This document shows, piece by piece, positions 12,946-41,473 of a DNA stretch of 64,000 nucleotides. The translations under genes were made by a program, and so were the position numbers. Position 1 is the stretch's first letter. The number at the start of each line of letters is the position of its first letter. This stretch comes from Candidatus Obscuribacteraceae bacterium (GTDB taxonomy: Bacteria > Cyanobacteriota > Vampirovibrionia > Obscuribacterales > Obscuribacteraceae), in assembly GCA_044226015.1 (NCBI GenBank), contig JBGAHS010000005.1:128001-192000 (forward strand), in the 5' to 3' direction. The notes below the pieces were generated by a model, which did not search any database, had not been told where the DNA came from, and was given only the letters and a program-made list of their open reading frames with translations.

Positions 12946-14616
12946 TTGATGAAGACCTGGACACTAGCTCTATTACTTTTGGCTAATTTCTTTTCTGCGG
13001 TTTCAGGCGCCGAGGAGAGCATTGAGAATTCTGCCAGTTCTGCTGAATCCAGGCAGAAGTCAAGCGAACTTAGATTCCAAGTGTTTTTGCCACCAGTGCT
13101 TGAGAAGGAAAAGAACGTTTGGGGTAGCATTTATGATCAGTTTGGAAACATAGCGCCTCAGCAAAAAATCGTTGTAAATGACATCGAGGTCGAGAGTGAT
13201 GATTACGGTTCATTTCATTTTCTCGCTCCGGTGGCTGACAAGGTCGATGTTCATATAGCTGGCATCGCTGGCAGTGACCTGTCTTATTGGAGCACCGCCA
13301 GTGGTTTGCTTGTCTCTGACCAGAGTGCAGTGGATTTGGTCGACAGGTTGGACTCAATGCCTGTGTTCTCTGGCAAGGAGCCGGTGATTGCGCTCGCACC
13401 ATCCGTGGTGGAAACGCAGCAAACCATAGTGGTGCTTGGAAAAAATTTCAGTGGTAAACAAGGCGACGACGACCTCGAAGTTGCTGACCGTAACGCTGAT
13501 ATTCTTGCTGCCTCACCTCGAAGCCTTGTTGCGGTTACTAGCAAATTTATGAAAATGGGACCGATGAAGGAAATGCGTGTTTCCAGCCACGAACAAACAT
13601 CACTGCCAGTCGAGCTAGATGTATGCAAAGTGTCCATAAAAAACAATTCTCAACCGAATGGCAAGGCTGCTGTGCGAATAGATGTACTCGGCACAACATT
13701 ACCTGCGGTGATTGCTCTCACTAACAATTCGCGCTCTGATTTGCGATTTGGGGGCTGGAAATTAGGCAGTCAAAATCTCTTCCTGAGCCAGGGCGGTGTG
13801 CAGAATGCTTTTATGGTCGAGCCCAGCGTGGCTTTATCTTCCAACGAGTTTGCTGCTCATCTGGTGTCAAATGGACTTTTTGACGCGTATTCGATGAAAA
13901 CCAACCGTAATCTTCTTTCGAAAAGTGTATACGACACTGAAGAACAAGCTGAAATCATTCGCTTGAAAAAACGTGTGATTGGACTTGAGTCTCAACTCAA
14001 TTCGCTAAATACCCAAAGGGCTGAAGAATCAAAGTCTGCAAAACTCGACCTTAATGAAGAGAGCGACCTCGAATTGAAGAGTAAGGCATTGAGCTCACGC
14101 ATCTTTAGAATAAACAGAATGCTTCAGGCACGGCGAACTGTTTTGGAGTCTTGCGGTTACAGCGACTATGACAAGCTTATGGATCTCGCCACCAGTGGTG
14201 GTGCGAGCAGTCTTGATGCTTTAGCATCAGACAAGGCTCTAGGTTTTACAGAATCGCGATTGCTGAGAATCGTAGCTAAAAGGGCAGCCGAAGAGAAGAA
14301 GCAATCTGAGATGGAAGCTAATGCAGCATGGACTTACAAATACAATTCTCCGGATAAGACTATGCTGAATTCTTACAGAAAGAAATATGGAAAACGTGGA
14401 TATGTACCTCCGCCTCCAAATATGGCGACCCTAATTCCTCCACCTGCACCATTCAAACCTGATTTAAAGGATATGGGACCATTCTTGATGGACCTCAATG
14501 TTGCACCGCCTGCGCCACTTTCTTCAAAAGCAAAAAGCAGCAAAGGTAAGCCGGCTACATCTGCTTCGGAAACTCGCGTTAATTCCAAGCAATCTAAGAA
14601 AAAAGCAAGAAGATGA
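12946..14616 (+). CDS. Exported hypothetical protein (Ig/IPT-like segment, coiled coil, Pro/Lys-rich tail)
   Basis: 556 aa ORF; signal peptide; 'IVVLGKNFS' IPT-like motif; stop overlaps the next ATG (ATGA). Confidence 0.75.
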   Translation: MMKTWTLALLLLANFFSAVSGAEESIENSASSAESRQKSSELRFQVFLPPVLEKEKNVWGSIYDQFGNIAPQQKIVVNDIEVESDDYGSFHFLAPVADKVDVHIAGIAGSDLSYWSTASGLLVSDQSAVDLVDRLDSMPVFSGKEPVIALAPSVVETQQTIVVLGKNFSGKQGDDDLEVADRNADILAASPRSLVAVTSKFMKMGPMKEMRVSSHEQTSLPVELDVCKVSIKNNSQPNGKAAVRIDVLGTTLPAVIALTNNSRSDLRFGGWKLGSQNLFLSQGGVQNAFMVEPSVALSSNEFAAHLVSNGLFDAYSMKTNRNLLSKSVYDTEEQAEIIRLKKRVIGLESQLNSLNTQRAEESKSAKLDLNEESDLELKSKALSSRIFRINRMLQARRTVLESCGYSDYDKLMDLATSGGASSLDALASDKALGFTESRLLRIVAKRAAEEKKQSEMEANAAWTYKYNSPDKTMLNSYRKKYGKRGYVPPPPNMATLIPPPAPFKPDLKDMGPFLMDLNVAPPAPLSSKAKSSKGKPATSASETRVNSKQSKKKARR

Positions 14617-17600
14617 CCTTGTTCAACCCGAAGTTGAGAGTCTTCCACCAAGGTTTGATTCTGGTGGGACTGCCTCTTATTCTCGAACTTTTACTTATCG
14701 GAAATCTCTGGAACTTACTTTTGCATGCCGATAGAGAGCTTGCAAGAGAAAGTCGTTATAGGCAATTCTCAGCTTTGGGCAGCCGTTTGATGACTCTTAC
14801 TTATGAGGCACCATATCTTTTGATTACTTCGCTGCAAGGTGGTGGCAATCGCTACTTTCTTGCTTACGAGCGTGACGTAGAGCAAGTGAAACAATTGAAG
14901 AGTCAGGCTTTGGCATTAGCAAAAGATGACCCACTAATAGAAGACGTTTCTGTTGAATTAGAAGAAAGTTTGTCAGTTATTCTAGGCATTTGTGACACCC
15001 TCGCAGAGGCGAAGAGAAGTGGAAGTTCACTCAACTTGATTCACGAACTTCCTCGTATTCAGCAGCGATTCAACAACTCGAAAAATCTCGCGATTGAGCG
15101 AATCGCTATAATCGTCAAAATCGGACAACATACTACAGCTGAATCGGAAAAGCGAATTCGTCGGATGCGCAGTCTGATGAGTTGGATTCTGCTCTTTGGC
15201 GTCTTCTCCAATATCTTATTGGGTGTAGCATTACTTGCATTTTTTCGAAAGCGCATTCTTGAGCGCATCAAAGTTATTACCGAAAATACTCTGCTATTGT
15301 CTCAAAAGAAAGAACTGCACAAACCCCTCGGTGGTGGCGATGAGATAGATCAATTAGATCGCGCATTTCACCTGATGAATACTGAATTGATCGAGGCATC
15401 GAGGCGAGAAACATCTCTGTTTAACAACGCCAGTGACGTTATATGTGTTCTTGACTCAAACGCTCAATTCTTAAAAATAAACTCTGCCTGCGAACGATTG
15501 TGGTTTTACAAATCAGAACAGTTACTTAGCCATTCACTGCTCAATCTTTTGGATGAATCGGATAAAGCATCCTTTGAAAAGTTGTTTGCTAAATGCAAGG
15601 CATCTCCAGAACCAGTTAATTTAGAGATAAAGATCAAGAGGAACGATGAATCTGTTATTGAGACTTTGTGGTCGACATTCTGGTCCGTTCCTGAACAGTG
15701 TCTGTATTGCGTAGTGCATGATATTAGCGAAAGAAAACAAGTCGAGAGAATCAAACAGAAATTTATTGCGCTAATTAGCAAGGAATTGAAAAAGCCCCTA
15801 TCGTCAATAAGTGATTCCCTGAGTGGACTATTGATTCCCACAGCTAAGCTATCTGACCTTGCGCGTAGCAAATTGATAAATACGCAAAGCAATCTGAAGC
15901 GCTTACTTCAATTGGTCAGTGAGTTGCTTCAAATCGCTGAAATGGAGAGCGCAGCAAAGATGCAATTGGAGTTTGCTGACTTTGATATCTTTGAGATTGT
16001 CAGTCAGGCTGTTTCTGATGTCGAAGGACTGGCTCAGGCGCGGAACATTCAGCTAATTGTTGAAGTGAAATCTTCCAATTGTAATTGCGATAAAAACAGA
16101 ATAGTTCAAGTGCTGGTGAACCTATTATCGAATGCGATAAAGTTCTCGCCAGAGTCTTCGACTGTTACCGTAAATGCGGTTTTAGAAGGTATAGCTCAAA
16201 AAATATGCGTAATAGATTCGGGCAGAGGTGTTCCAGAGTCACATCGTCAGACGATATTTGAAAAGTTCAAACAAGTAGAGGCAAGTGATGGAAGACCTAA
16301 AACAGGAACTGGTCTTGGTTTGCCGATTTGCAAAGATATCGTAGAAGCTCATTCTGGCAGCATTGGTGTTAAAAGTAATGAAGGTCAAGGAAGTGTTTTC
16401 TGGATAACGCTTCCACTAACTGAGCTAGAAAGAGAACGACTGCGGGCGCAAAAAGAGAATCTAATTTCAGCTGCCGATGAAAGCATGCCATTAGCGGGGA
16501 AATCTACTGCGCAGGCTGACTTGGGTAAGATTACAAAGCCATCGGAGAAAAAGAGATTTCAACTCAAGCTCATACACAAAGGTGTTTTGCTGGTTGGTAT
16601 TCCGATTTTATTTGAGAGCGCTTTCGTTGGCGCACTTGCAGTGCAACTGACGCAGTCTGAGCAAATGCGCCAGAGCGAGTTAAAGCAAAGAAAGATTGCC
16701 GCGTATTCCAACAGGATGCTGCAAGGCTTCATGAAAGCCGCATTATTGATTACTCTGACAAAAAGTCGCGACAACTGGGTTGCCTTTGAAGCAGTCTACA
16801 AGGAGATTCTTCATTACCGACAGACCATCAAAAAGTTGCTTGCAAATGACCCTGCTGTTGCGCAAGACTTTGAAAATCTGGAAATATCAAATAAGAAGTG
16901 GGATGAATTTTACGTCGCTGCAGCAGAGAGAATGAAGGAGGGTTTCACTGAAGTAAACTCAAGTGACACCATGGATAAACGGGCAATTTTACTTCCGATA
17001 ACAGCTAACATTGCACGGAAGGTTTTACGTCTTGTCGAAGATGTGGAAAAGCGCGAGTTCGAGCCAGCTAAGCAGGCTGCCCAAAGAAAGAAACTAGGGT
17101 TGATACTGTTGGCGGGGCTATGCAGCAATTTGATGCTGTCAGTATTGCTTGCTCTGTATTTCTCCAAAGACATTACGTCACGACTTGCCCAACTAGCAGA
17201 TAACGCTGAGCGTCTAGCTAACGATAAACCTTTGAATACTCCATTGAGTGGTACTGATGAAATTGCAAATTTAGATCGTGTGTTTCATGAGACTTCAGAA
17301 GCTGTGCAAGCTGCTCGCAAGAAAGAACGTGCTGTTTTTGATAATGCTCAAGATTTGATTTGTTCGATCGACGAAAACGCAAAATTCTTGAGTCTAAATC
17401 AAGCATGCGCACGGCTGCTCGGCAGTGATGCGGCAAGTCTTAAGGATAAAGTTCTCTATGAATTTGTTTCACCAAACGAGAAAGAGAAGATGCAAGCGGC
17501 TCTTTCCATCAGTGATGCAGGTACACAAAGTCACTGTGTTATTGAAAGCAGTCTATCTAGAAGTGATGGAGCTTTGATTTACTTGCAATGGTCTATCTCA

Positions 17601-18341
17601 AAAGCACCCCAGGAAAATCAGGTCTATTGTGTTGCACACGATATCACTATTAGAAAGGAATTCGAACAACTAAAGCAAGAGTTTCTCGCTATGGTCAGTC
17701 ATGACCTTCGCTCGCCACTAACCTCTATTTCTGCAATGTCTAAATTGGTTAGCACGGGCATGTTTGGTGGCATTGGCGATAGAGAGGACGAGCTTCTAGA
17801 AGCAATTGAAGTTGAATCGAGCAGGCTCATTGAACTCATCAACGACCTGCTTGATATTGAAAAATATGAGGCGGGCAAAATGGAGCTGCTTCTAGAAGAG
17901 GTTGATTTGAATGCATTTCTTCGCGAAACCTGCATTAGCCTCTTGGGGCGCTCAAGGCTGAGCTTCAACTTTGCCGCCGAGCACCATTTTGTCGAAATTG
18001 ATAAAGCACGGTTTTCCCAGGCAATCTCAAATCTGCTCAAGTTCTTTTTGCAAATCGATCCGCAGGCGAGAGTAACTGTTAGCTCTAGGGTGCAGCAAAA
18101 TGCTCTAGTTCTGTTATTAAGTTCTAGCGGTACGCAGCTTTCAGAGGAAGCCTGCAGTGCGGCGTTTGATCGGTTTCGTGATGAGAGCATCGAATTCAGT
18201 ATTGGCTCAGGGCTGGCTTTGCCAATCAGCCAGCGCATCATACAAAGTCATAGAGGCCGCATAAAGCTAAGCAGCGACGCTGATGCTCATATGAATGTTT
18301 TTGAGATAACGCTGAATTCTAACTTCTCCAGCGAAGAATAG
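14613..18341 (+). CDS. Tandem double sensor histidine kinase: 2 x (TM-sensor-TM-HAMP-PAS-DHp-CA)
   Basis: Module 1 H-box SKELKKPL with intact NAIKFS/DSGRG/GTGLGL; module 2 H-box SHDLRSPL with degenerate CA. Confidence 0.93.
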   Translation: MTLFNPKLRVFHQGLILVGLPLILELLLIGNLWNLLLHADRELARESRYRQFSALGSRLMTLTYEAPYLLITSLQGGGNRYFLAYERDVEQVKQLKSQALALAKDDPLIEDVSVELEESLSVILGICDTLAEAKRSGSSLNLIHELPRIQQRFNNSKNLAIERIAIIVKIGQHTTAESEKRIRRMRSLMSWILLFGVFSNILLGVALLAFFRKRILERIKVITENTLLLSQKKELHKPLGGGDEIDQLDRAFHLMNTELIEASRRETSLFNNASDVICVLDSNAQFLKINSACERLWFYKSEQLLSHSLLNLLDESDKASFEKLFAKCKASPEPVNLEIKIKRNDESVIETLWSTFWSVPEQCLYCVVHDISERKQVERIKQKFIALISKELKKPLSSISDSLSGLLIPTAKLSDLARSKLINTQSNLKRLLQLVSELLQIAEMESAAKMQLEFADFDIFEIVSQAVSDVEGLAQARNIQLIVEVKSSNCNCDKNRIVQVLVNLLSNAIKFSPESSTVTVNAVLEGIAQKICVIDSGRGVPESHRQTIFEKFKQVEASDGRPKTGTGLGLPICKDIVEAHSGSIGVKSNEGQGSVFWITLPLTELERERLRAQKENLISAADESMPLAGKSTAQADLGKITKPSEKKRFQLKLIHKGVLLVGIPILFESAFVGALAVQLTQSEQMRQSELKQRKIAAYSNRMLQGFMKAALLITLTKSRDNWVAFEAVYKEILHYRQTIKKLLANDPAVAQDFENLEISNKKWDEFYVAAAERMKEGFTEVNSSDTMDKRAILLPITANIARKVLRLVEDVEKREFEPAKQAAQRKKLGLILLAGLCSNLMLSVLLALYFSKDITSRLAQLADNAERLANDKPLNTPLSGTDEIANLDRVFHETSEAVQAARKKERAVFDNAQDLICSIDENAKFLSLNQACARLLGSDAASLKDKVLYEFVSPNEKEKMQAALSISDAGTQSHCVIESSLSRSDGALIYLQWSISKAPQENQVYCVAHDITIRKEFEQLKQEFLAMVSHDLRSPLTSISAMSKLVSTGMFGGIGDREDELLEAIEVESSRLIELINDLLDIEKYEAGKMELLLEEVDLNAFLRETCISLLGRSRLSFNFAAEHHFVEIDKARFSQAISNLLKFFLQIDPQARVTVSSRVQQNALVLLLSSSGTQLSEEACSAAFDRFRDESIEFSIGSGLALPISQRIIQSHRGRIKLSSDADAHMNVFEITLNSNFSSEE

Positions 18342-19455
18342 AATCTGGAACAGGGTTCTTGAATGGACGCTTTTCTCTCTTTGCGTCAGCCCATTCCTTC
18401 TTAAGGCGCAAGTACCAGGCGCCAGGCGTGCCGGCGTCTTTTATGGTTGGAACCAGTTTTGGTTTCAGCTTCAAGAGGGGCGCCTGTCTGAGCGCAATAG
18501 ACTGATCTTGCCCCAAAAACACAGTGACGAAATATTGGATGATCGGTTCGACGAACTTGGTGCCCGGAATCGTCCAATAGGTCATGTGGTTCAATTCTGT
18601 GTGCGTTTCATCGATTGGAGTTAAGCAACTAATTCCCGCGATAAGTGTGCGTCCCGCAAAAGTGAGGTACTCTCTGCGGCAGCCGGGCAAGCGAAATCCA
18701 AACTCATCCTCGATATATTTTCCAAAGAGTTTATACACGATGGAATGTGCCGATGGTCTATGTTTCACCACCGTCCAGCCGGTTGCATCCGGCACATAGT
18801 GTTTGGTTTTCTCTTTCAACTGTTTAGCTGATCGCCACCACCATGATTTATGTATATAAGGAACGTGCGCAGGGTCGATTAAAGCCAGGGCGGCATAGTC
18901 GATATGCGTTGGAAGTTGCAACGTGGTGCAAGCGCTTTCGTAAAGCATATCGTTCAATCCCGGTGCTTCCGGAACCACGTCTGGAAGATCTTCCTTCTCG
19001 TCGCCGAAGTAAACCCAGATTGTGCCTTTCACTTCGCGCACAGGATATTTTGGAGTTTTGATTTTGCAAACAGGAAATTTTTGGTCTGAGCAGAGCGATG
19101 GAATTTCGGTACAAGTTCCAGCACTATCGAATTTCCAACCATGGAAGGGGCACATTACTTCTTTGCCGTCGAAGTGCCCATCACTCAGTGGAACGGCCTG
19201 GTGAGGACAAATATCCTTCAGCGCAAAAACTTTTCCGTCACTGCGTCTTCCAATGAGAACTGGCTCACCAAGCATGGTCTTGCTTACCATCTGCCCGGGC
19301 TTCAATCTGCTGGACGGTATTGCAAAATACCACATATCTCGCAAAAACCATGTGCCGAGACCGCCCATTTGCGTTGGATTTACAGACTCAAGATCGGAAT
19401 AATCTTGTTCGTCTCGCTTATCAGCTGAAGTCTGACAGTTTAGTGTGCTTGTCAT
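18319..19455 (-). CDS. Rieske non-heme iron oxygenase, alpha subunit (VanA/PAO-like)
   Basis: CPH...CPFH Rieske ligands; DPAHVPYIH and distal QD mononuclear iron ligands. Confidence 0.92.
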   Translation of the reverse strand: MTSTLNCQTSADKRDEQDYSDLESVNPTQMGGLGTWFLRDMWYFAIPSSRLKPGQMVSKTMLGEPVLIGRRSDGKVFALKDICPHQAVPLSDGHFDGKEVMCPFHGWKFDSAGTCTEIPSLCSDQKFPVCKIKTPKYPVREVKGTIWVYFGDEKEDLPDVVPEAPGLNDMLYESACTTLQLPTHIDYAALALIDPAHVPYIHKSWWWRSAKQLKEKTKHYVPDATGWTVVKHRPSAHSIVYKLFGKYIEDEFGFRLPGCRREYLTFAGRTLIAGISCLTPIDETHTELNHMTYWTIPGTKFVEPIIQYFVTVFLGQDQSIALRQAPLLKLKPKLVPTIKDAGTPGAWYLRLKKEWADAKREKRPFKNPVPDSILRWRS

Positions 19456-28736: not shown

Positions 28737-29837
28737 CTAGAGCGATTTGTCCGTTTCCTGTTTGGCACTTGTTTTTCGCAAGGTGCCATAGACTCTAGTT
28801 TGACTTCTCAAAGTGCCGTACACCTTAACCTGGCAATGCGGTGCGTGCTGAGCCTGCGCTGGCCCGACATGGTTGGGTCGATGACGCAACGTATCCATCA
28901 TCGTGGACATGTGCTTTTTCTTGCTCTCTTCCTCTTCCTCATTCGCAACGCGTTGACCCATTTCATCCATCGCATCTTCGTGCTTGTCGTAGAACTGAGT
29001 GCCGTAATCAGAGTACTTTCCGGTGTCAAACGTGGTGTAGGACACGAAAGGGCGTTTTGCCATGCGTTCGTGCATGATTTCATCTGTCGTTTTCACAATG
29101 TCTTCGGATGTGTTTGGATCGATGGTGTTCATGTTGACGCCAGCTTTGATGGTGTCACGGAACCCTTTGCGTTCTAGCTCATGTTTGCGGTCAAAACCTT
29201 GCATATGACTGCGTTCAGTGAGTTCATGTGAATGTTGCCGGAAGTGCTCCATTTGCATTCTTGCAAAGATAACCTTCTTCTGGTCCATCGAGATGGTTTT
29301 GTCTTGCCACACTCCACCAAGTCTTTCGGCAAGTCTCAATTCTCCAGCGAGATCTTCTGGATTCCAATATCCCGGAATGCAATGCAGCACTGTGCCATCT
29401 GGCGCCATTACGAACATCTGGATGTTGTGTGGACCGGCACCGTTAGTGGTTTCCACCGCGTTTCCATCCACGGTATGAACACCGGAATTTCCCGCAAAGG
29501 GTTGGTCGCTTATGTCGCGATACCCGCAAACATAGCGGTTTCGGAGGCTCGAGAATAATGGTTCTTTGGAGAGCGACACGGCTCTGAGGCTATTGCCGGC
29601 ACTTCAAGTCTTGCCGTCCATTGAGCCGAGCATATGCACCCAAAAGATGAGCTTGCCGTTTTTCGTTGCTTCTTGCTCAGCTTCTTCGAGGTTGCTGCGC
29701 CAATTAATGCGACGATTAACCTGGTAATTTTCTTTTCGCGCTTCACTGCCAGGTACGAACGACAGTTTGTCAGCGCTGGCGGGCAAGCCAAAGCCAACAG
29801 CGAGAGTCAGGGAGAACAGCTTGATTAGCAATTTCAT
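28737..29837 (-). CDS. Exported thioredoxin-fold, SelN-like protein with an in-frame TGA at codon 78 (candidate selenoprotein; split into two ORFs in the track)
   Basis: 29604-29837 and 28737-29579 share a frame, separated only by TGA plus 8 sense codons: HMLGSMDGKT*SAGNSLRAVSLSKEP. Confidence 0.75.
29570..29585 (-). promoter_or_regulatory. Candidate bacterial SECIS hairpin
   Basis: AGAGC-CGUGUC-GCUCU; loop begins 24 nt after the UGA, with GU at loop positions 2-3. Confidence 0.35.
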
Positions 29838-29999: not shown

Positions 30000-30256
30000 C
30001 TGCTGGATCTGGGGCTGTTGGATCCGGGGCTGTTGGAGCCGGGGCTGTTGAATCCGGGGCTGTTGGATCCGGGGCGCTCTTCTTAACGGGTCTAAGGAGC
30101 GGGGGGACTCCCGGGAGCTCCTTCGTTGGATCGATCGAGGGACCTTGTCTGTTGTTGGACGGCGTCCGTGGGAACTGTGGGATCCTGGGCGCTCGTCTGT
30201 TGGATCGGGGAGCTTGCCCGTTGGATCCTGGGTGCTCGTCTTAACGGATCCAAGGA
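30000..30256. repeat. GGATCC-rich repeat tract: 5 x 15-bp tandem units plus degenerate longer copies
   Basis: CTGTTGGATCCGGGG-like units at 30000-30074; 36-bp imperfect direct repeat at 30063-30098 and 30221-30256. Confidence 0.85.
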
Positions 30257-30563: not shown

Positions 30564-33500
30564 TTGATTGCTTTGAAGTTGAAAGTTTTTCACAAGGGTC
30601 TGATATTGGTTGGCGTTCCTCTGCTTGTGGAGCTGCTTCTAATCGGTTCACTTTCGTTTTTGATTTACGAATCAGACCGCGAAAAAGCCAAAGAGCAGGT
30701 TTATCGACAATTTGCGCTGGTCACTGCGAAGCTAATGGCACTTACGTCTGAGGCACCCTACTTGCTCTTCTTGTCCATTCAGATGAGCAACGATAATTTA
30801 TTCAAATCCTATGAGAGAAAAATCGAAGACATCAAAGAATACACCAAAGAATACGATGACATTGTGAGCCGAAACCCCGAGCTTAACTGGGGCTCGAATG
30901 ATATGCAGCAAAGTGTTCTTGAACTTCTTGATGTTGCTGGAGAAATTACCACACAACGAAAAGCAAGCATCATGGATCTTATGACGGTGCTGCCAGAACT
31001 TCAGCCAAGGTTCAACAAGATAAAAGGCTCTGCAATTACTCGTCTCGGCGTCATGGTGCAAAAAGGCGAAAAGCAGACGATGGAGATGCAGGAGAAACAA
31101 GCCAGCATCCGCAATTGGATTTCTGTCATTCTGGTGGCTGGTCTGGTCTTCAATATTGCTGTTGGTATCTTGCTTGCATTCTATTACAAGAAAAGCATTA
31201 TGGAGCGCATCAAGGTCATAACGAAAAACACAGTTGCACTCTCTCGTGGACAGAGACTGCTTCCTGAGGTTGGTGGAAATGACGAAATAGCATTGTTGGA
31301 TTCAAGCTTTCATTCCATGCACAGGCAGCTTATGGCTGCTTCAGAGAGAGAGCGTGCTTTATTTAACAACGCAAGTGACGTAATTTGCGTACTTGATAGC
31401 AACAATCGTTTTAGTAAGGTCAATCCAATTTGTTATCAGTATTGGGGTTTCGAGCCCGAAGAAATGATTGGTATGTCGCTTTCTGAGCTGGTTTCGGATG
31501 AAGATTGGGTCCATACTGAGGAATTGATCATCAACGCCCGAATGAACAGAGAGCCAGTCAGTTTTGAAAATCGAATCAAGACAAAAACAGGAAAAATTAT
31601 TGAGGTGCTCTGGTCTGCTTATTGGTCGGAAAGCGAGCTCAGTCTGTTTTGTATAGTTCACGATATCAGCGAGCAAAAGCAAATTGAGAGAGTCAAGAAA
31701 CAATTTCTTGCCATGATAAGTTCTGACCTCAAGACTCCATTGAGTTCGATTTCTGCATCTGTCTCGATGTTGGTATCAGAACTGAAAGACTCCATGCCCA
31801 AGATGGCAGTCGATAAGCTTGATATGGCAAAAAAGAATGTCTTGCGTCTTCTTGGTTTGGTAAATGATTTGCTACAGATTACAGAGATGGACACTGGCAA
31901 TCTGGAAATCAAAAAGGAAGACAACAACATAGAAGAGCTTTTGCGACGCTCCATTCAAGATGTGGAAGCCGTTGCAGACAAGCAGAAGGTCAATCTTAAG
32001 GTTATTCCGGTTGAAGGAAATTGGTATGTCGATCCCAATCGAATCATGCAAGTACTGGTAAACCTGCTTTCAAACGCGATTAAATTCTCTCCTGCCGAAG
32101 GTACCGTTTTCCTCAAAGCTGAGCGGCAAGGCGACTATGTTGTTTGCAGTGTCATCGACCAGGGAAGAGGTGTTCCAGAATCGCACAAAGCTGCTATCTT
32201 CGAAAAATTCAAACAGGTAGAAGCTGCCGATGGAAAACGTAAGGCAGGAACTGGTTTAGGTTTGCCAATCTGTAAGCAAATCGTTGAGGAACATGGTGGA
32301 CTCATTGGTGTCGATAGCAAGGAAGGAAAGGGTAGTACTTTCTGGTTCAGAGTGCCTCTCGACGAAACAGTCAGCATGAAAATTAAAGCTCAGACAAAGA
32401 TTGCGCAGGCTGCCGAAGTCGCTGTTAAGTCTCGCAATGAAGCTCTTTCGAAAATGAAATCGATGGAGGAAGAAAACGCGAAGAAGAAACAGAAGCAGAA
32501 GGGCGGAAGTAAGCTTAAGCTCGCTTGGAAGGGTGTAATTCTGATTGGAATTCCTATTGCTTTTGAAGTGGTATTTGTAGCGGCTTTGTCCTTGCTCCTG
32601 ATGCAAATTGACCATGAGCGCGCAGCTGAACTGCATCAACGAAACATTGCGTTTAACGCTGGAAAACTTCTGAATCTCTACTTCCGCGCGGGAGTTTTCA
32701 TGGCAGAAGGAAAAGGAATTGATACCTGGAGAAATGTCGATGAGACTTTTCTTGCTGCTCAAAAGGTAAAGGCTGAGTTGCATGCATTGTGCCAGGATGA
32801 GCCAGAAGCCTCTGGGCATCTTGCCAAGGTTGAGCAGCAACAAACCAAGCTAGAGAGATTTGTTCAGCGTGGACGAATGCTTATGCAGTCTTCAGGAGGC
32901 TTCGACCCTTCAGTTGCTGCCGAAGCTTTGAGCGGAAGGGACAAACTGCTGCCTGTGGTAATCGGAGTGGCGCATAAAATTCAAAAGGTTATCGATGACG
33001 CTGAAGACAAAGAGTTGGCAAACCCAAAAAACCAGGAAGACTTGAGAAAGAAACAGGGACAGATTCTTGTTCTCGGGCTTGCTGCCAATGTTCTTGCTTC
33101 GGTTTTGCTAGCACTGTTTTTTACTAGAGATGTTACGTCTCGGCTAACAATTCTTGCGGACAATGCTGACAGGTTGGCGAAAGAGCAAGAGTTGAATCCT
33201 CAAATTGCTGGAAGCGATGAAATTGCACAGCTTGATCGTGTATTTCATGTCACTGCTACCGCATTGAATGAAGCGCGGCACAAAGAGCGAGCCGTTTTCG
33301 ACAATTCGCAAGACGTTGTTTGCGCCATTTCATCTGACGGCAAGTTCACCAATATGAACCCTGCAAGTTTGAAAATGTTTGGTTTTACGAAAGAGGAAAT
33401 GCTATCCAAAAACGTGCTTGATATAACACACCCGGATGATATTGAATCCACGAAGAAGTCGTTGCTCGGCGATTTCGGAGGACAACCACGCATTTCATTT

Positions 33501-34331
33501 GAAAACAGAGTGGTTAAAAAAGACGGTTCAACGATTTACGTTTTGTGGTCTGCATCAAGACAGAAAGGCGAGGAAACGTCCTATTGCGTCGCTTACGATA
33601 TTTCGAACAGAAAGGAACTCGAACAATTGAAACAAGAGTTTCTGGCGATGGTAAGCCATGACCTGAGGACACCGCTCACATCCATTACTGGTATAGCTAA
33701 GCTGATAGGTGCAGGGGCCTTCGGAAAGGTTTCGGAACAGCCAATGAAGGTTCTCACAGGCATTAATAAGAATGGAGACAAGCTGCTTGAGCTAATCAAC
33801 GATTTGTTGGATATCGAAAAACTTGAATCCGGTCACATGCAGTTGATTCTCGAAAATGTATCGCTTAAAGACCTGGTCGAAAAGTCTGCTGCAAGTGCAC
33901 CAGAAAACCATCCAGTGAAGATTGAATTTCACGGTGACAATCCGAGTGTATCGGTGAATGCAGACAAAGACAGGTTAACCCAGGCTTTGAGCAATATACT
34001 CAGTCATGCCTGTTTGCGCTCAACAGATGGAGCCACAATTCGCTTCCTTTCTCGCAACACCGCTGACTCCATTGAATTTCAGATAATCGATGCTGCTCCC
34101 GCGATGGAAGAAAAAATGCGCGTTCAACTTTTCGACCGCTTCAAAGACATGAGCTCGATGGCGTCTGCATCAGTAGAAGAACGAGTTGGCACAGGACTGG
34201 CACTACCAATTGCCAGAAAAATAATCGAGAGCCATGGCGGAACTGTTGGCGTTATAACAAAGGGAGCAAGCGGCAACGTTTATTTCATCAAGCTGCCGCT
34301 CGACGCTGCCCTCGTTCAATCTGCCAAGTAA
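30564..34331 (+). CDS. Tandem double sensor histidine kinase, paralogue of 14613-18341
   Basis: Module 1 H-box SSDLKTPL with intact NAIKFS/DQGRG/GTGLGL; module 2 SHDLRTPL with degenerate CA (NILSHACL, DAAPA). Confidence 0.93.
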   Translation: MIALKLKVFHKGLILVGVPLLVELLLIGSLSFLIYESDREKAKEQVYRQFALVTAKLMALTSEAPYLLFLSIQMSNDNLFKSYERKIEDIKEYTKEYDDIVSRNPELNWGSNDMQQSVLELLDVAGEITTQRKASIMDLMTVLPELQPRFNKIKGSAITRLGVMVQKGEKQTMEMQEKQASIRNWISVILVAGLVFNIAVGILLAFYYKKSIMERIKVITKNTVALSRGQRLLPEVGGNDEIALLDSSFHSMHRQLMAASERERALFNNASDVICVLDSNNRFSKVNPICYQYWGFEPEEMIGMSLSELVSDEDWVHTEELIINARMNREPVSFENRIKTKTGKIIEVLWSAYWSESELSLFCIVHDISEQKQIERVKKQFLAMISSDLKTPLSSISASVSMLVSELKDSMPKMAVDKLDMAKKNVLRLLGLVNDLLQITEMDTGNLEIKKEDNNIEELLRRSIQDVEAVADKQKVNLKVIPVEGNWYVDPNRIMQVLVNLLSNAIKFSPAEGTVFLKAERQGDYVVCSVIDQGRGVPESHKAAIFEKFKQVEAADGKRKAGTGLGLPICKQIVEEHGGLIGVDSKEGKGSTFWFRVPLDETVSMKIKAQTKIAQAAEVAVKSRNEALSKMKSMEEENAKKKQKQKGGSKLKLAWKGVILIGIPIAFEVVFVAALSLLLMQIDHERAAELHQRNIAFNAGKLLNLYFRAGVFMAEGKGIDTWRNVDETFLAAQKVKAELHALCQDEPEASGHLAKVEQQQTKLERFVQRGRMLMQSSGGFDPSVAAEALSGRDKLLPVVIGVAHKIQKVIDDAEDKELANPKNQEDLRKKQGQILVLGLAANVLASVLLALFFTRDVTSRLTILADNADRLAKEQELNPQIAGSDEIAQLDRVFHVTATALNEARHKERAVFDNSQDVVCAISSDGKFTNMNPASLKMFGFTKEEMLSKNVLDITHPDDIESTKKSLLGDFGGQPRISFENRVVKKDGSTIYVLWSASRQKGEETSYCVAYDISNRKELEQLKQEFLAMVSHDLRTPLTSITGIAKLIGAGAFGKVSEQPMKVLTGINKNGDKLLELINDLLDIEKLESGHMQLILENVSLKDLVEKSAASAPENHPVKIEFHGDNPSVSVNADKDRLTQALSNILSHACLRSTDGATIRFLSRNTADSIEFQIIDAAPAMEEKMRVQLFDRFKDMSSMASASVEERVGTGLALPIARKIIESHGGTVGVITKGASGNVYFIKLPLDAALVQSAK

Positions 34332-36887: not shown

Positions 36888-36916
36888 TTGACGCCCTCTA
36901 TGCAATCACTCAGAAT
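36888..36916 (+). promoter_or_regulatory. Putative sigma70-type promoter of the LuxR-family gene
   Basis: TTGACG-17 nt-CAGAAT. Confidence 0.45.
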
Positions 36917-36996
36917 TGTTGATAGAGCCTTTTTGTTTTGATTCTAAGTCACTTCGTTTGCTCAATCGGGAAAAGTGCTGCGCGGGTGCAAAAATA

Positions 36997-37641
36997 ATGA
37001 AGTACATTATCGTTGATTCCAACGATATTTCTAGAGCTGGGTTGAAATCTCTTCTTTTAGCCAGTGGTAAAAGTGTTGAGGAGTCAGCAGACTACTCGCT
37101 TATTTCGCGGGCTGATGCACCCGCTGTTTTGCTTCTTGGTTTGAATGAAGAGAGTATGGAAAGTGCAATCGCTCAGCTTGATGCACGTTTGCGAATAGGA
37201 AAGAAAACAAACATTCTTTGCATATCTTCGACCCTCAGTGTTGAGCAATGCGATACTCTTTCCAACATGGGTGTTCAAGGCTTTTGTAGTGGCAGCATTT
37301 CCGCTGATATGTTGGCACTGGCTATTCGTGCTGTAGAAAATGGTGCATTTTTTGTTTGTCCTAAGACCCAGCAAAAGCGAACAATGCATTTACGTAAGAA
37401 GCGCACTGCCATTGGTGAGGAATTGTCACCAAGAGAAATGGATGTTCTTGTTCAGCTAGTAAACGGAAACTCGAACCAGGATATCGCAAAGAATCTGAAT
37501 ATCAGTGTGGAAACTGTAAAAGCCCACGTTAAGAGCATTCTTGCTAAGCTGGCAGTGCATGATAGAACGCAAGCTGTAGTTAAGGCAATTAAGTTCGGAC
37601 TGGTCGAATATCTTTCAGCGAAGAGTGAGATAAAGAACTAG
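36997..37641 (+). CDS. NarL/LuxR-family regulator with an atypical, aspartate-less receiver domain
   Basis: LSPREMDVL..GNSNQDIA..ETVKAHV..DRTQAV HTH; receiver has LLLG where LLD is expected. Confidence 0.9.
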   Translation: MKYIIVDSNDISRAGLKSLLLASGKSVEESADYSLISRADAPAVLLLGLNEESMESAIAQLDARLRIGKKTNILCISSTLSVEQCDTLSNMGVQGFCSGSISADMLALAIRAVENGAFFVCPKTQQKRTMHLRKKRTAIGEELSPREMDVLVQLVNGNSNQDIAKNLNISVETVKAHVKSILAKLAVHDRTQAVVKAIKFGLVEYLSAKSEIKN

Positions 37642-37855: not shown

Positions 37856-38140
37856 CGTACATAATAGTCCACAAAATTGACCCGATTAAACGAAGAAATT
37901 GCCCTGGAATGTCACTTTTAATATTCCTTCTTTATCCTACATTGGCTTAATCAGTCTTCTGGCTCCACGAGCAATGGCACTGCAAGTAACGTCCCATCAT
38001 AGGCCTGTTAAGAGTCCGCGCTTACTGGAGATATTGCTCCTGAAGTGAAGATGTCACTCTCGGGTCATTCAGCTCCCTTATCTTCTTCTCATCAGATGTT
38101 TCTTGAAACATGTGAGGGCACAAAAGACGAGGGATGCGCG

Positions 38141-39139
38141 ATGTCAGAAACGAATTTCAAGCATGATGAATTGGAACTTTCCACGAATTCAAACGACAAC
38201 ACAACGGCCAGTTTGTTCAATAGTATTGCAAATGATTTGAATGGAAATCATCAAGTTCAGAGACGAGAAGGACCTGATGGGTCCAATTCACTCATTCCTC
38301 AGCTGGATTTGTTCGCGAAAAGAGACGCCGACTCTGCACAAAAAATTAGCGCTGATCTTCCTTCTCCCGCTCAAATTGCCGTGGAAGCCTCTACTGCTGG
38401 TGCCGTGGCTGGTGCGCAAATAGCTAACGGTCTTGCACAGATAGGTAAGCTTGTGACTTCGGGTGCAAGAGAAAGCGGGAAGCTGTTGAATGAGACAGTG
38501 CGTGGTGCGGGGCTAGATGCGCAGAGACTGGGCAACGTAGTGAAAGATGGAGCAAAAGAAAGCGGGAAGCTGTTGAATGAGACAGTGCGTGGTGCGGGGC
38601 TAGATGCGCAGAGACTGGGCAACGTAGTGAAAGATGGAGCAAAAGAAGGCGGGAAGCTGTTGAATGAGACAGTCAGAAGCGCAGAATTAGATGCGAAGAG
38701 AATGGGTAACGCCGTGAAAGATGGAGTGAAGGAAGCTGAGAAGCTCGTGGATGGCACTGTACGTGGTGCAAAGGCAGGAGTGCCCCTGGTAGAGCAACTA
38801 GCAAGGGAACAACTAAAAGACGCCTTTAAGAGTGCTGACGAACTTGCAAAGGGAGCGGGGATAGATACTACTCCTGCCAAAGTGGGTGCGGCAGCAGGAG
38901 TCAAAGTATTGGATGGTGCAGCCAAAGCTGCAGCTAACAAATTTGATAAAGCCGCTGAGGATGCCAGAAAGGCTGCTGACGAAGCTGCCAGGAAGCTAGA
39001 AGAACTCTCGCGCAGAGCTGAACTAGAAGCTAAAAACGCAGTCAAACAAGCTGAGCCTGTGGTGAAGTTTGGTATGGTGGGCGTCGGAACGAAGGTATTG
39101 GTTGATTTCCTTCTTCCAAACAATAATCCAAAGAAATAG
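38141..39139 (+). CDS. Ala/Lys-rich helical protein with 29-aa tandem repeats
   Basis: ATG 38141 after GAGGG; about 3.5 copies of GAKESGKLLNETVRGAGLDAQRLGNVVKD. Confidence 0.8.
   Translation: MSETNFKHDELELSTNSNDNTTASLFNSIANDLNGNHQVQRREGPDGSNSLIPQLDLFAKRDADSAQKISADLPSPAQIAVEASTAGAVAGAQIANGLAQIGKLVTSGARESGKLLNETVRGAGLDAQRLGNVVKDGAKESGKLLNETVRGAGLDAQRLGNVVKDGAKEGGKLLNETVRSAELDAKRMGNAVKDGVKEAEKLVDGTVRGAKAGVPLVEQLAREQLKDAFKSADELAKGAGIDTTPAKVGAAAGVKVLDGAAKAAANKFDKAAEDARKAADEAARKLEELSRRAELEAKNAVKQAEPVVKFGMVGVGTKVLVDFLLPNNNPKK
38462..38773 (+). repeat. 87-bp intragenic tandem repeat (~3.5 copies)
   Basis: Units start at 38462, 38549, 38636 and 38723; the first two are nearly identical in DNA. Confidence 0.9.
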
Positions 39140-39235: not shown

Positions 39236-40690
39236 CTAAATCTCGAACCAGAAAATGGAACCTTCACCTTGCTTTGATGTCACACCTATGATGCCACCAT
39301 GAGCTTCTACAAGTGACTTGCAAATGAAAAGACCCAGTCCGCTTCCCTGTCGTTTCACCTGACTTTCCTGGTCTAGCTGTTTGAACTTTTCAAAAACATG
39401 TTTTTGTTCTTCTTCAGAAAGTCCTTTGCCATGGTCTTCAACTTCGAAGCGAGTTCTCTTTGTTGCAGTTTGACTGCTAGCTTTCAGTTCTATCTTCGAT
39501 TTTCTTGGCGAGAATTTAATTGCATTTGAAATCAAATTTACCAGGACTTGAACCATTCTATCGGCATCGCAAGAGAATGACAGCTGGTCTGCTGCCGATA
39601 GCTCAAGCTGTATCTGTTTTGCATCAGCAAGTCCGCGCACCGAGTCTAGTGCTTGAGTCAATAGTTCCATTGCCGTAATCTCTCTCAAGTTTAGCTCCAG
39701 AGAGCCACTCTCGAGCCTCTCCATGTCCAGAAGATCATTTGCAAGCCGAACCAAGCGATTGATTTCGGACTCTACTCGCATTAATGTCGTATCTACTTTT
39801 TGAGGAATTTCTCCGTAGGTACTGTCACGGCATACCTGCACCATTCCCAGCAATGATGTGAGTGGTGCTCGAATGTCGTGACTTACCATTGCTTGAATAT
39901 TCTTTTTTATTTCGTCAGCAGATTCGCGTTGCGCAGCCATTTCGGAAAATACGGTATCAAGTTCAGCCAGTTCATCATTTCCACCTAATGGTGTCTTTTC
40001 GATCTTTCCCACTGAGAAATTGCGGATTTTAAAAATCAATTTGTCCATTCGCTTTACGGTTGTTCTGCCGAACATCCAGGCTAAAGTTGCGGTTATTGCA
40101 ATATTGAACACCACACCGCCTACCAGAAATGTTCTCAATGCTTTGCGTCTTTCCAACTCCGCTGGCATCATTTCTTTTACCAGTGGAATGTAGATATCAT
40201 TTATGGCTGCTATATCGGAAGTAAGCCTTTTTGAGTAAACTGCTAACTCTTCGAAAAACTCCCCCTGGTCGAGGTAAGACTTAAATTTTGGAACGGTGTC
40301 TTTTGAAAGGAAGCTCTTCTGTCCTTCATCGCAAAGTTCTTGAATGTGAGCGATTGAGTCCAGGTAGTGTTCAATAGCAGGCTTAGCTTTTGTATCAGAG
40401 GCAGTCAGAGTCTTTAAAGCCTCAACCTTCTCTTTCATAAGAGCCTTGCCGCGGTCGAGTACGGGAATATACTCTTTTGATTCAGCCATGCGCATAGAGG
40501 TGAGGACTAAATAGTTGGCGAACAACCCCATTCGCATTTCATCGCATGATGCCAGAACTTTTTTTGCATGACCTTCCACAGCCGCTGCTTTTTCAAGGTT
40601 CGCATTAGCAGCCACAAGAATCCATACGAATAGCAGTTGACAAACTAGTGGAAGTCCTGTAAGAACTAGACTCTGGTTGCGTAACTTCAT
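39236..40690 (-). CDS. Conventional sensor histidine kinase (TM-sensor-TM-HAMP-HisKA-HATPase)
   Basis: SHDIRAPL, NAIKFS, DHGKG and GSGLGL are all intact. Confidence 0.95.
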   Translation of the reverse strand: MKLRNQSLVLTGLPLVCQLLFVWILVAANANLEKAAAVEGHAKKVLASCDEMRMGLFANYLVLTSMRMAESKEYIPVLDRGKALMKEKVEALKTLTASDTKAKPAIEHYLDSIAHIQELCDEGQKSFLSKDTVPKFKSYLDQGEFFEELAVYSKRLTSDIAAINDIYIPLVKEMMPAELERRKALRTFLVGGVVFNIAITATLAWMFGRTTVKRMDKLIFKIRNFSVGKIEKTPLGGNDELAELDTVFSEMAAQRESADEIKKNIQAMVSHDIRAPLTSLLGMVQVCRDSTYGEIPQKVDTTLMRVESEINRLVRLANDLLDMERLESGSLELNLREITAMELLTQALDSVRGLADAKQIQLELSAADQLSFSCDADRMVQVLVNLISNAIKFSPRKSKIELKASSQTATKRTRFEVEDHGKGLSEEEQKHVFEKFKQLDQESQVKRQGSGLGLFICKSLVEAHGGIIGVTSKQGEGSIFWFEI

Positions 40691-40750: not shown

Positions 40751-41473
40751 ATGGCTAAAATCCTGGTTGTAGAAGATGACCCCTTAATTTCCCAATCATT
40801 GGTCGATTGGCTTGAGGGAGAACATCATACTGTTGAATTAGCTGAGGACGGAAAAGAAGCGCAAGATTTGCTGAAATTTTACCCGTATGACCTTGTGATA
40901 CTTGATTGGCAGTTGCCGAGTCTTTCTGGCATCGAGGTTTGTCGAAACTTCCGAAGCGGCGGTGGCAAGATTCCGATTTTGATGTTGACTTCACAAGGAA
41001 ATATCGAGCATAAGGAATTAGGCTTTGATTCCGGCGCTGACGATTATTTGACGAAGCCGTTCCAGTTGCGAGAACTTGCTGCAAGAATCAGAGCTTTGTT
41101 GCGTCGTCCTTTTGATATGGTCCAGACAATTGGAGGCAACGCCAATAGTGAAGTCGCTCTTGACCCTAAAGACTTTAGTCTGGTGCTAAAAGGAAGCAAG
41201 AGAATTGTTCTTCAACCTAAAGAATTTGCCGTTCTTGAATTCCTGATGCGGCATCCTGAACAGTTTTATTCGACCGAACAGTTGTTGAACCAGGTCTGGA
41301 AGTCTGATTCAGAATCAAGTGTTGGTGCCCTCAGAGCTTGTGTTAAACGTTTGCGCAAACGTATTGGCGCTGATTGCCCGGGGCTAGTTGAAAGTGCCAG
41401 AACTTATGGTTATAGGGTAGTTCTTGGACCAGGGATTTGGACGCAGAACTCGGGCTCTGAGGATGATGAATAG
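40751..41473 (+). CDS. OmpR/PhoB-family response regulator
   Basis: VVEDD, ILDW phospho-Asp, YLTKPF, winged-helix C-terminus; divergent from the HK. Confidence 0.95.
   Translation: MAKILVVEDDPLISQSLVDWLEGEHHTVELAEDGKEAQDLLKFYPYDLVILDWQLPSLSGIEVCRNFRSGGGKIPILMLTSQGNIEHKELGFDSGADDYLTKPFQLRELAARIRALLRRPFDMVQTIGGNANSEVALDPKDFSLVLKGSKRIVLQPKEFAVLEFLMRHPEQFYSTEQLLNQVWKSDSESSVGALRACVKRLRKRIGADCPGLVESARTYGYRVVLGPGIWTQNSGSEDDE

Follow-up and report, generated by a model that had tools for sequence, protein, structure and literature searches.

A family of tandem double histidine kinases in Candidatus Obscuribacterales with crossed loss of the phospho-acceptor and ATP-binding sites

Almost all histidine kinases are homodimers that become asymmetric only transiently, in the active state, and the two subunits are therefore difficult to study separately; the dimer holds two active sites, each built from one catalytic and ATP-binding (CA) domain and one His-bearing helix of the domain for dimerization and histidine phosphotransfer (DHp). 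A division of these tasks between two different units is modeled for FasB/FasC of Streptococcus pyogenes, where, in the accessible part of the report, the His of one unit receives its phosphate from the ATP domain of the partner, and the His-bearing unit can do without a kinase domain of its own; the evidence comes from deletion and two-hybrid experiments, and the pair operates in this manner in vivo (PMC12675982). Likewise, GacS subunits carrying either H293A or a G2-box mutation are described as complementing one another in trans in the available text of PMC8498467. Here we analyze a 64,000-nucleotide stretch of DNA (the window) from a Candidatus Obscuribacteraceae bacterium (GenBank assembly GCA_044226015.1, contig JBGAHS010000005.1, positions 128,001 to 192,000), in which one open reading frame (ORF) on the forward strand, 30564-34331, encodes 1255 residues arranged as two membrane histidine kinases in tandem. 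As in FasB/FasC, one unit of this protein is equipped for ATP binding and the other carries the His, here as read from the residues present.

Each module of the query runs in the order transmembrane (TM) helix, periplasmic sensor, TM helix, HAMP, PAS, DHp and CA, with the four TM helices centered by hydropathy at residues 21, 197, 666 and 843. Pfam reports two HisKA, two HATPase_c and two PAS stretches, with a weak HAMP ahead of each PAS, so that the DHp and HATPase_c pair typical of class I HisKA kinases is present twice. The modules share 22-36% identity domain by domain, and sensor 2 is 22% identical to sensor 1; sensor 1 has no Pfam sensor match, and its resemblance to CHASE3 (top ESM Atlas matches, score 0.95) serves as a lead only. 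The nearest profiles and solved structures are of the WalK / PhoR / HK853 type, with VicK, WalK and HK853 the closest solved, and for none of the 25 NCBIfam families listed does the query reach the curated cut-off (WalK equivalog 386 against 725, PhoR 318.5 against 334.2). Module 1 reads ISSDLKTPL with Ser387 (TCT, 31722) in place of the phospho-acceptor, followed by NLLSNAIKFS (residue 500), DQGRG (532) and GTGLGL (562); module 2 reads VSHDLRTPL with His1032 (CAT, 33657), followed by NILSHACL (1144), DAAPA (1176) and GTGLAL (1209). All eight motifs lie where the original prediction placed them, and neither module unites a phospho-accepting His with intact N, G1 and G2 boxes, as a canonical homodimer would. 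The reciprocal inactivation that had also been proposed for a second protein in the window (copy 1) holds for both, with different residues at the dead sites (K and F in copy 1); the two proteins are identical at 509 of 1264 aligned positions.

This crossed loss is too common among the relatives to be due to chance. We compared 120 full-length proteins, comprising the query and 119 of the 120 matches listed from 2963 found, with the query's own cluster left out. Ninety-four lack both the His of module 1 and an intact CA of module 2 (forward cross-loss), 23 are intact, one shows the reverse arrangement (P0117) and two are partial; the His of module 1 is replaced by S in 73, F in 7, Q in 4, Y in 3, R in 3 and by other residues elsewhere. 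When further matches and genome proteins were added, the resulting 169 proteins, which include near-duplicate rows, divided into 107 forward, 23 reverse, 26 intact and 13 partial or other. The 30 tandem proteins found among 112 new matches of a 50%-cluster search were held out; 22 of them are forward, one more is forward but retains a residual His, 2 are reverse and 5 are intact. Partial states are represented by P0115, P0127, P0300, P0194 and P0203. In none of the 120, the 169 or the held-out 30 were the His and ATP site lost from the same module, nor were both His or both ATP sites lost. As a control, 70 of 76 single-module relatives retain the His together with two or more CA boxes; of the six that do not, three resemble fragments of tandem proteins.

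The genome containing the window (G000, 8.19 Mb) has 83 ORFs that match kinase cores, 12 of them with two DHp-CA modules. Eleven of these 12 combine a His-less module 1 and intact CA with a His-bearing module 2 and degenerate CA; the twelfth keeps both His and both N boxes. A scan with the DHp alone matched 84 proteins and brought those with two DHp domains to 17. Four of the five additions are reverse tandems of ~850 aa (C10:374995-377559, C12:264098-266764, C8:228042-230612 and C8:604429-606969; L044, L049, L045 and L048) in which a His-bearing DHp with its CA deleted precedes an H box that is degenerate and a CA that is intact; by annotation these four would pass as ordinary single kinases. 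The fifth is a soluble 1504-aa protein (C6:370708-375222; L046:4709-9223) with long N-terminal repeats, ending in a His-bearing DHp and a His-less DHp back to back and then one CA, and followed by a response regulator gene; this soluble form was not found in 7 congeners and is known from the one genome. A two-gene version, with a His-less donor followed by a CA-degenerate acceptor in overlapping or abutting frames, occurs on the reverse strand of G000 (C8:205401-208467; L047:5402-8468) and in 5 of 7 congeners (L051-L055). Tandem kinases were also seen in arrays of two or three adjacent genes (L011, L013, L016 and contig C2 of G078).

All named relatives are labeled Ca. Obscuribacterales or Melainabacteria, and matches in other phyla span the kinase core only. 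With 25 candidates scored per genome, the fused junction was detected at E <= 1e-80 in 7/7 congeneric genomes, 11/77 genomes of the family and 0/3 from the other family sampled. Across a class-wide sample of 60 other genomes the matches listed were single-module frames, and a metagenome scan for the reverse family returned four partial loci. The linker between modules measures 42-113 aa in the PAS-containing family and an estimated 25-40 aa or so in proteins without PAS.

The division between modules extends into helix 2 of the DHp. Counting from the phospho-acceptor position, Arg at H+41 is found in 104/107 forward donors (the His-less modules with intact CA) and 11/107 forward acceptors (the His-bearing modules), and in 21/23 donors and 1/23 acceptors of reverse proteins. 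Lys or Arg at H+54 has the opposite distribution (forward donors 4/107, acceptors 106/107; reverse donors 3/23, acceptors 22/23), and all 26 intact proteins keep Arg H+41 and Lys H+54 in both modules. Asn at H+38, like Arg H+41, remains with the CA-bearing half, and the two-gene operon displays an identical helix-2 split. In the query itself, Glu441 of DHp1 (31884) replaces the Lys of intact modules and Lys1073 of DHp2 replaces their Arg. Near the H box, acceptors have Asp H+1 and Arg H+3 in 107/107, module 1 has Arg H+3 in just 18/107, and Thr or Ser at H+4 is retained in 114 of the 120 module-2 sequences among the matches listed. Of nine strongly shifted DHp sites, seven agree between forward and reverse proteins.

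The two CA domains are conserved in different ways. Residues of the N, G1 and G2 boxes of CA1 are invariant in 94/94 cross-loss proteins, as is Lys507 in 93/94. In CA2 the Mg-binding Asn (CpxA Asn360) has become His, Phe or Tyr in 88/94, while the Leu equivalent to CpxA Leu419 (Leu1212, 34197, in the query) is kept in 92/94 and the Asn equivalent to CpxA Asn356 in 71/94. Leu419 and Phe403 anchor the CA of CpxA on its DHp in both states, according to the portion of that structural study at hand (PMC3904827), and CA2 looks like a plugged yet docked domain.

We consider it likely that the query functions as an obligate pseudo-heterodimer, a sensor kinase whose CA1 phosphorylates His1032 in trans, its two halves probably working only together. 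Modules 1 and 2 would pair in parallel through sensor, TM, HAMP, PAS and DHp, like the subunits of a normal kinase dimer; phosphate from ATP bound to CA1 would pass to His1032 of module 2, and from there to a response regulator encoded at an unlinked locus. That regulator may dock on a composite face to which module 2 contributes helix 1 and module 1 helix 2, with CA2, presumably unable to bind ATP, retained as a docked structural domain. The outcome would be one active site per dimer, the asymmetry of active kinases made permanent, and two different sensor and PAS inputs. Pairing within one chain, rather than between two, is the simplest arrangement, and the soluble DHp-DHp-CA protein of one genome alone points to it; linker length was rejected as a test of intra- against inter-chain pairing because it reflects only the return to the membrane.

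The crossed pattern bears on this mechanism. With trans catalysis, a heterodimer can shed one of its two sites if one subunit gives up its His and the partner its ATP pocket, leaving a crossed loss, whereas a cis kinase shedding a redundant site would be expected to place both losses in one module; only the crossed pattern was seen. Taken together, the crossed losses and the helix-2 split lead us to infer the route from CA1 to His1032 to an unlinked regulator. By alignment, H+54 corresponds to CpxA Arg296 and H+38 to EnvZ Asp273, the latter among the regulator-specificity residues in the available text of PMC2991266. In trans-acting CpxA, as the accessible sections of PMC3904827 describe it and as we interpret their wording 'opposite monomer', the attacking CA contacts the opposite monomer at His248 and Arg296, and the remaining flank of helix 2 is turned toward helix 1 of the partner. 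A trans-handed bundle of modules 1 and 2 would place all conserved helix-2 residues around the His1032 helix; a cis-handed bundle would place them around the His-less helix, and a homodimer of module 2 would be expected to keep both flanks.

Several observations weigh against trans catalysis or caution against reading the helix-2 rule as absolute. The closest solved kinases, VicK, WalK and HK853, are cis-type, WalK and HK853 being cis-acting, and the DHp hairpin has the length of HK853's (52 residues, His to LLD) and is longer than those of CpxA and EnvZ. Its length matches that cis kinase, and its conservation pattern matches trans-acting CpxA. The donor Arg is missing from three forward proteins of G000 that have no PAS; in the held-out set 5/23 forward donors keep Lys or Arg at H+54 and 5/22 acceptors keep Arg H+41. 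The correlation between forward and reverse proteins over 36 conserved DHp columns is weak (rho 0.32, p 0.056), and the sequences are related, so the counts overstate independence. In the part of PMC3904827 available, VicK is cis-acting and the loop joining helices 1 and 2 decides by its handedness between cis and trans.

Trees built on non-catalytic columns (with P0063 standing for copy 1) place 93 cross-loss proteins, both window copies among them, in one clade. The polarity shared by the two copies is therefore inherited and is not independent evidence; it is common to both, as the original prediction held, but it is not fixed in the family, as the reverse forms demonstrate. Other cross-loss proteins arose elsewhere: in a 33-row tree P0084 and P0090 are nested among intact proteins (support 100/100), and the reverse protein P0117 is sister to intact P0093 (100/98). 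A module-level tree of sensor and HAMP regions (FastTree, 141 rows, several long branches) supplies the per-module phylogeny that had been suggested for dating the duplication: in the PAS family, the first and second modules group as each other's relatives (support 99), and the PAS-less reverse family represents a separate duplication (98). The protein is best read as the product of internal duplication. The PAS-less reverse proteins are graded: P0194 is nearly intact, P0195-P0197 and P0201 have a dead CA, and in P0179-P0193 the CA is deleted. Several PAS-less tandems (C6:217382-220375 of G000, P0199, P0200, P0202, P0131 and P0146) have both His and both N boxes, with Lys at H+3 of module 1, possibly an early stage of the split. 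As judged from these trees, cross-loss is convergent across separate clades and in both polarities, in addition to the two-gene operon. Proteins keeping both His and both N boxes, whose common occurrence the original prediction had counted against itself, do make up 23 of the 120 compared; these intact tandems are the lineage giving rise to new cross-losses, and so support the model.

A per-domain substitution analysis, also suggested beforehand, compared the query with its syntenic orthologues in five genomes. The proportion of non-synonymous differences (pN) is far below that of synonymous differences (pS) in all 11 segments, the dead CA2 included: pN is 0.08-0.10 in CA1, 0.17-0.27 in CA2 and 0.04-0.14 in both DHp domains, with pS saturated at ~0.7-1.0. 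This and the recurrent cross-loss favor a family design over decay, as originally argued; the two-copy argument first given for it is weak, the pattern being shared by descent.

Why the sites were lost is a separate matter from how the protein works. On one account, which we think may well apply though we would not quite favor it, the split is neutral subfunctionalization: once two trans-acting modules were fused and paired with each other, one redundant active site was lost at random and nothing new was selected. This account is compatible with the trans chemistry proposed above. The occurrence of both polarities, the variety of residues replacing His, the partial states and the persistence of intact proteins all fit it. 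On the other side, aromatic replacement of the CA2 Asn in 88/94 (mostly one clade) and the purifying selection on CA2, where pS saturates at ~0.8, suggest a kept role, and the family has expanded to 17 members in G000.

Rivals to the mechanism itself fare less well. We find it unlikely that the protein is a phosphatase or phosphate sink without autokinase activity, in which a cis-handed bundle would let module 2 dephosphorylate or drain a regulator while nucleotide bound to CA1 tunes it. The HK853-like hairpin, the cis-type nearest structures, the intact HDLRT motif of module 2 with its frequent H+4 Thr or Ser, and the mostly orphan genes would suit such a role, but acceptors keep the kinase-specific Asp H+1 and Arg H+3 without exception, donors keep Asn500 and Asn504 in 94/94 and Lys507 nearly always, and a cis-handed bundle would set the conserved helix-2 faces around the His-less helix.

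Slightly less probable again is a chain that joins two independent homodimers, with another kinase feeding module 2 as a ChpT/Spo0B-like phosphotransferase and module 1 serving as a DivL-like pseudokinase regulator. A His with a degenerate CA does resemble ChpT, and a His-less DHp-CA resembles DivL. A module-2 homodimer should, however, keep both helix-2 faces, and acceptors lose Arg H+41 in both polarities; module 1, unlike DivL, keeps an invariant CA and mostly lacks Arg H+3; and the coupled losses in both polarities would be left unexplained.

A decaying pseudogene or assembly artifact can be dismissed with near certainty: one relative has a frameshift (L013) and another is split by an N gap in a linker repeat (L010), apparent natural splits that we rejected as evidence, but the entire ORF is covered by a contig that an independent study produced (run X2), with zero indels and no substitution at catalytic codons, and the syntenic orthologues in five genomes and the low pN in 11/11 segments point the same way. 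The query is a real, conserved and repeatedly evolved tandem kinase.

Table 1. Features of the tandem kinase and of its surroundings in the window (window coordinates).
Feature	Position	Strand	Basis or remarks
Tandem double histidine kinase (1255 aa)	30564..34331	+	Alternative start TTG at 30573
Module 1 TM1, periplasmic CHASE3-like helical sensor, TM2	30597..31181	+	Hydropathy and ESM Atlas; approximate boundaries
Module 1 HAMP and PAS	31191..31667	+	Pfam; HAMP weak, E 0.069
DHp1, His-less putative donor half	31686..31898	+	Ser387 (31722); helix-2 Asn425 (31836) and Arg428 (31845) kept
CA1, intact ATP-binding domain	32031..32363	+	Asn500, Asn504, Lys507, DQGRG, GTGLGL
Cytoplasmic linker back to membrane, ~55 aa	32364..32528	+	Sequence poorly conserved; 42-113 aa across family
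Module 2 TM3, periplasmic sensor, TM4	32532..33119	+	Hydropathy; approximate boundaries
Module 2 HAMP and PAS	33120..33602	+	Pfam; HAMP weak, E 0.03
DHp2, putative acceptor half	33630..33833	+	His1032 (33657) in HDLRTP; Lys1086 (33819) kept
CA2, degenerate	33960..34301	+	N-box Asn replaced by His1148 (34005); G1 DAAPA; G2 GLAL
Paralogue (copy 1) of 1242 aa, sharing clade and polarity with the query	14613..18341	+	Pfam, tree, alignment
Hypothetical 280-aa gene, divergent from kinase	28737..29579	-	Syntenic with kinase in five relatives
Single-module kinase without PAS	39236..40690	-	Probably paired with 40751-41473
OmpR-type response regulator, 6.4 kb from query kinase	40751..41473	+	Pfam

The cognate regulator does not lie beside the kinase: the nearest Pfam receiver is 6.4 kb off (Table 1), and a single-query scan, which misses some receivers, found no regulator in the flanks of orthologues L001-L005. 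By adjacency the regulator at 40751-41473 more likely goes with its divergent neighbor, the kinase at 39236-40690, which is not among the 14 best surface matches. In G000, which has 133 matches to receiver domains, 33 of 56 single kinases have a regulator within 300 bp. The regulator scan (one query, 97 ORFs) overlooked at least two receivers that lie beside tandem kinases (C9:469403 and C6:375665), so the orphan status of tandem kinases is a tendency only. Assigning regulators by surface similarity to single kinases yielded no clear partner; the composite surface of two modules matched better than the acceptor's own in 13/17, in a test that is partly circular. Promoter and terminator scans gave matches at chance level only. 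The kinase at 39236-40690 had further been put forward as resembling the ancestral unit. It shares the architecture class of the modules but is close to neither; it lacks PAS, sits on a long branch with <=23% identity to any row of the sensor/HAMP tree, and is not that unit.

Other features of the window are recorded here as observations. The protein of 28737-29579, encoded upstream of the kinase in the five orthologous loci, has no Pfam match; in the ESM Atlas it resembles unnamed clusters of Planctomycetota and Melainabacteria. A LuxR/GerE-type DNA-binding protein (36916-37641, +), 2.6 kb downstream of the query, has an N-terminal part like a degenerate receiver and no Pfam receiver match. 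Tandem repeats lie upstream of the query (15-bp unit x5, 30000-30075; 22-bp unit x3, 30175-30241), and an 87-bp unit x3 (38465-38726) falls within a 364-aa ORF (38045-39139). Two adjacent paralogous small proteins (891-1676 and 1730-2635, -) have a Cys-rich N-terminus in common. The neighbors of copy 1 are a 556-aa gene without annotation (12946-14616, +) and a Rieske oxygenase (18319-19455, -), and this flanking synteny is retained in two relatives (L008, L009).

More broadly, and tentatively, Obscuribacterales may more than once have converted homodimeric sensor kinases into pseudo-heterodimers on a single chain, with one hard-wired site and two different sensor/PAS inputs, trans-acting despite a cis-type loop length. 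If so, these proteins would be a bacterial parallel of kinase/pseudokinase receptor pairs, integrating two signals or an asymmetric ligand and precluding subunit swapping with paralogues, and every evolutionary stage would survive: intact and partial tandems, cross-loss of either polarity, proteins with the CA deleted, the two-gene operon and a minimal soluble DHp-DHp-CA form. In a natural single chain with one fixed site each half could be mutated separately, making half-of-sites catalysis, the rules of cis and trans, and asymmetric transmembrane signaling directly testable, and such a chain could serve as a scaffold for two-input synthetic sensors. A family with intermediates records how pseudoenzyme/enzyme pairs arise from homo-oligomers, and the helix-2 signature offers a sequence test for donor/acceptor heterodimers hidden among kinases annotated as 'degenerate'.

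Among known systems, the homodimer ChpT and Spo0B resemble module 2 in its kept His and degenerate CA. The self-sufficient homodimer surface of ChpT/Spo0B is missing from module 2 by an indirect test, Arg H+41 being lost in 96/107 forward acceptors. Each module shares the HAMP-PAS-DHp-CA order of WalK / PhoR / HK853-type kinases, which are homodimers with both sites and cis-acting where tested, whereas the query modules split the sites. The engineered single-chain EnvZc[AAB] reportedly has two DHp hairpins and one CA, like the soluble protein of G000. In an evolved ChrS with a CA frameshift, a CA-dead kinase acts with its heterodimerizing paralogue HrrS, as the available text has it (PMC9491836); both of these are single laboratory-made cases, and the query belongs to a natural family. 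Module 1 alone has the look of a His-less pseudokinase such as DivL, which is described in the accessible part of PMC4211667 as binding ATP poorly, with a dispensable CA and a retained regulator-docking helix 1; with its invariant CA boxes and Arg H+3 so rarely kept, module 1 does not belong with DivL, and the helix-2 pattern fits neither DivL nor a ChpT homodimer.

Closer in principle are complexes of unlike units. RetS-GacS, in the sections of PMC8498467 available, establishes that two different kinases can, structurally, form a heterodimeric DHp four-helix bundle; this complex is inhibitory, in competition with homodimers, where in the query the heterodimer would be the sole productive form. 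CheA3/CheA4 of Rhodobacter sphaeroides place ATP binding and phospho-acceptance on different units that must complex, but in the text at hand (PMC3591291) they are separate, dissociable chemotaxis kinases whose modeled bistability needs the free form, and the query has full membrane HisKA modules on one chain. In the literature covered, which left subscription journals outside, neither fused donor/acceptor kinases nor the Obscuribacterales family are described. FasB/FasC are the nearest likeness, two membrane kinase-like units that heterodimerize with a donor/acceptor division, the last deduced for the query from its residues. They are encoded by two genes, have six-TM sensors and are linked to a ComE-like regulator (PMC12675982, as far as its available text goes), where the query is one ORF with four TM helices and no such regulator; its units are fused HAMP-PAS HisKA modules, its division is visible in sequence and has arisen repeatedly in both polarities, and its family mostly has no linked regulator. 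By analogy the query would work like FasB/FasC but fused, and more loosely like CheA3/CheA4, and it is a member of neither system; the heterodimer principle is itself known, and what is new is a putative donor/acceptor kinase heterodimer on one chain, expanded into a family.

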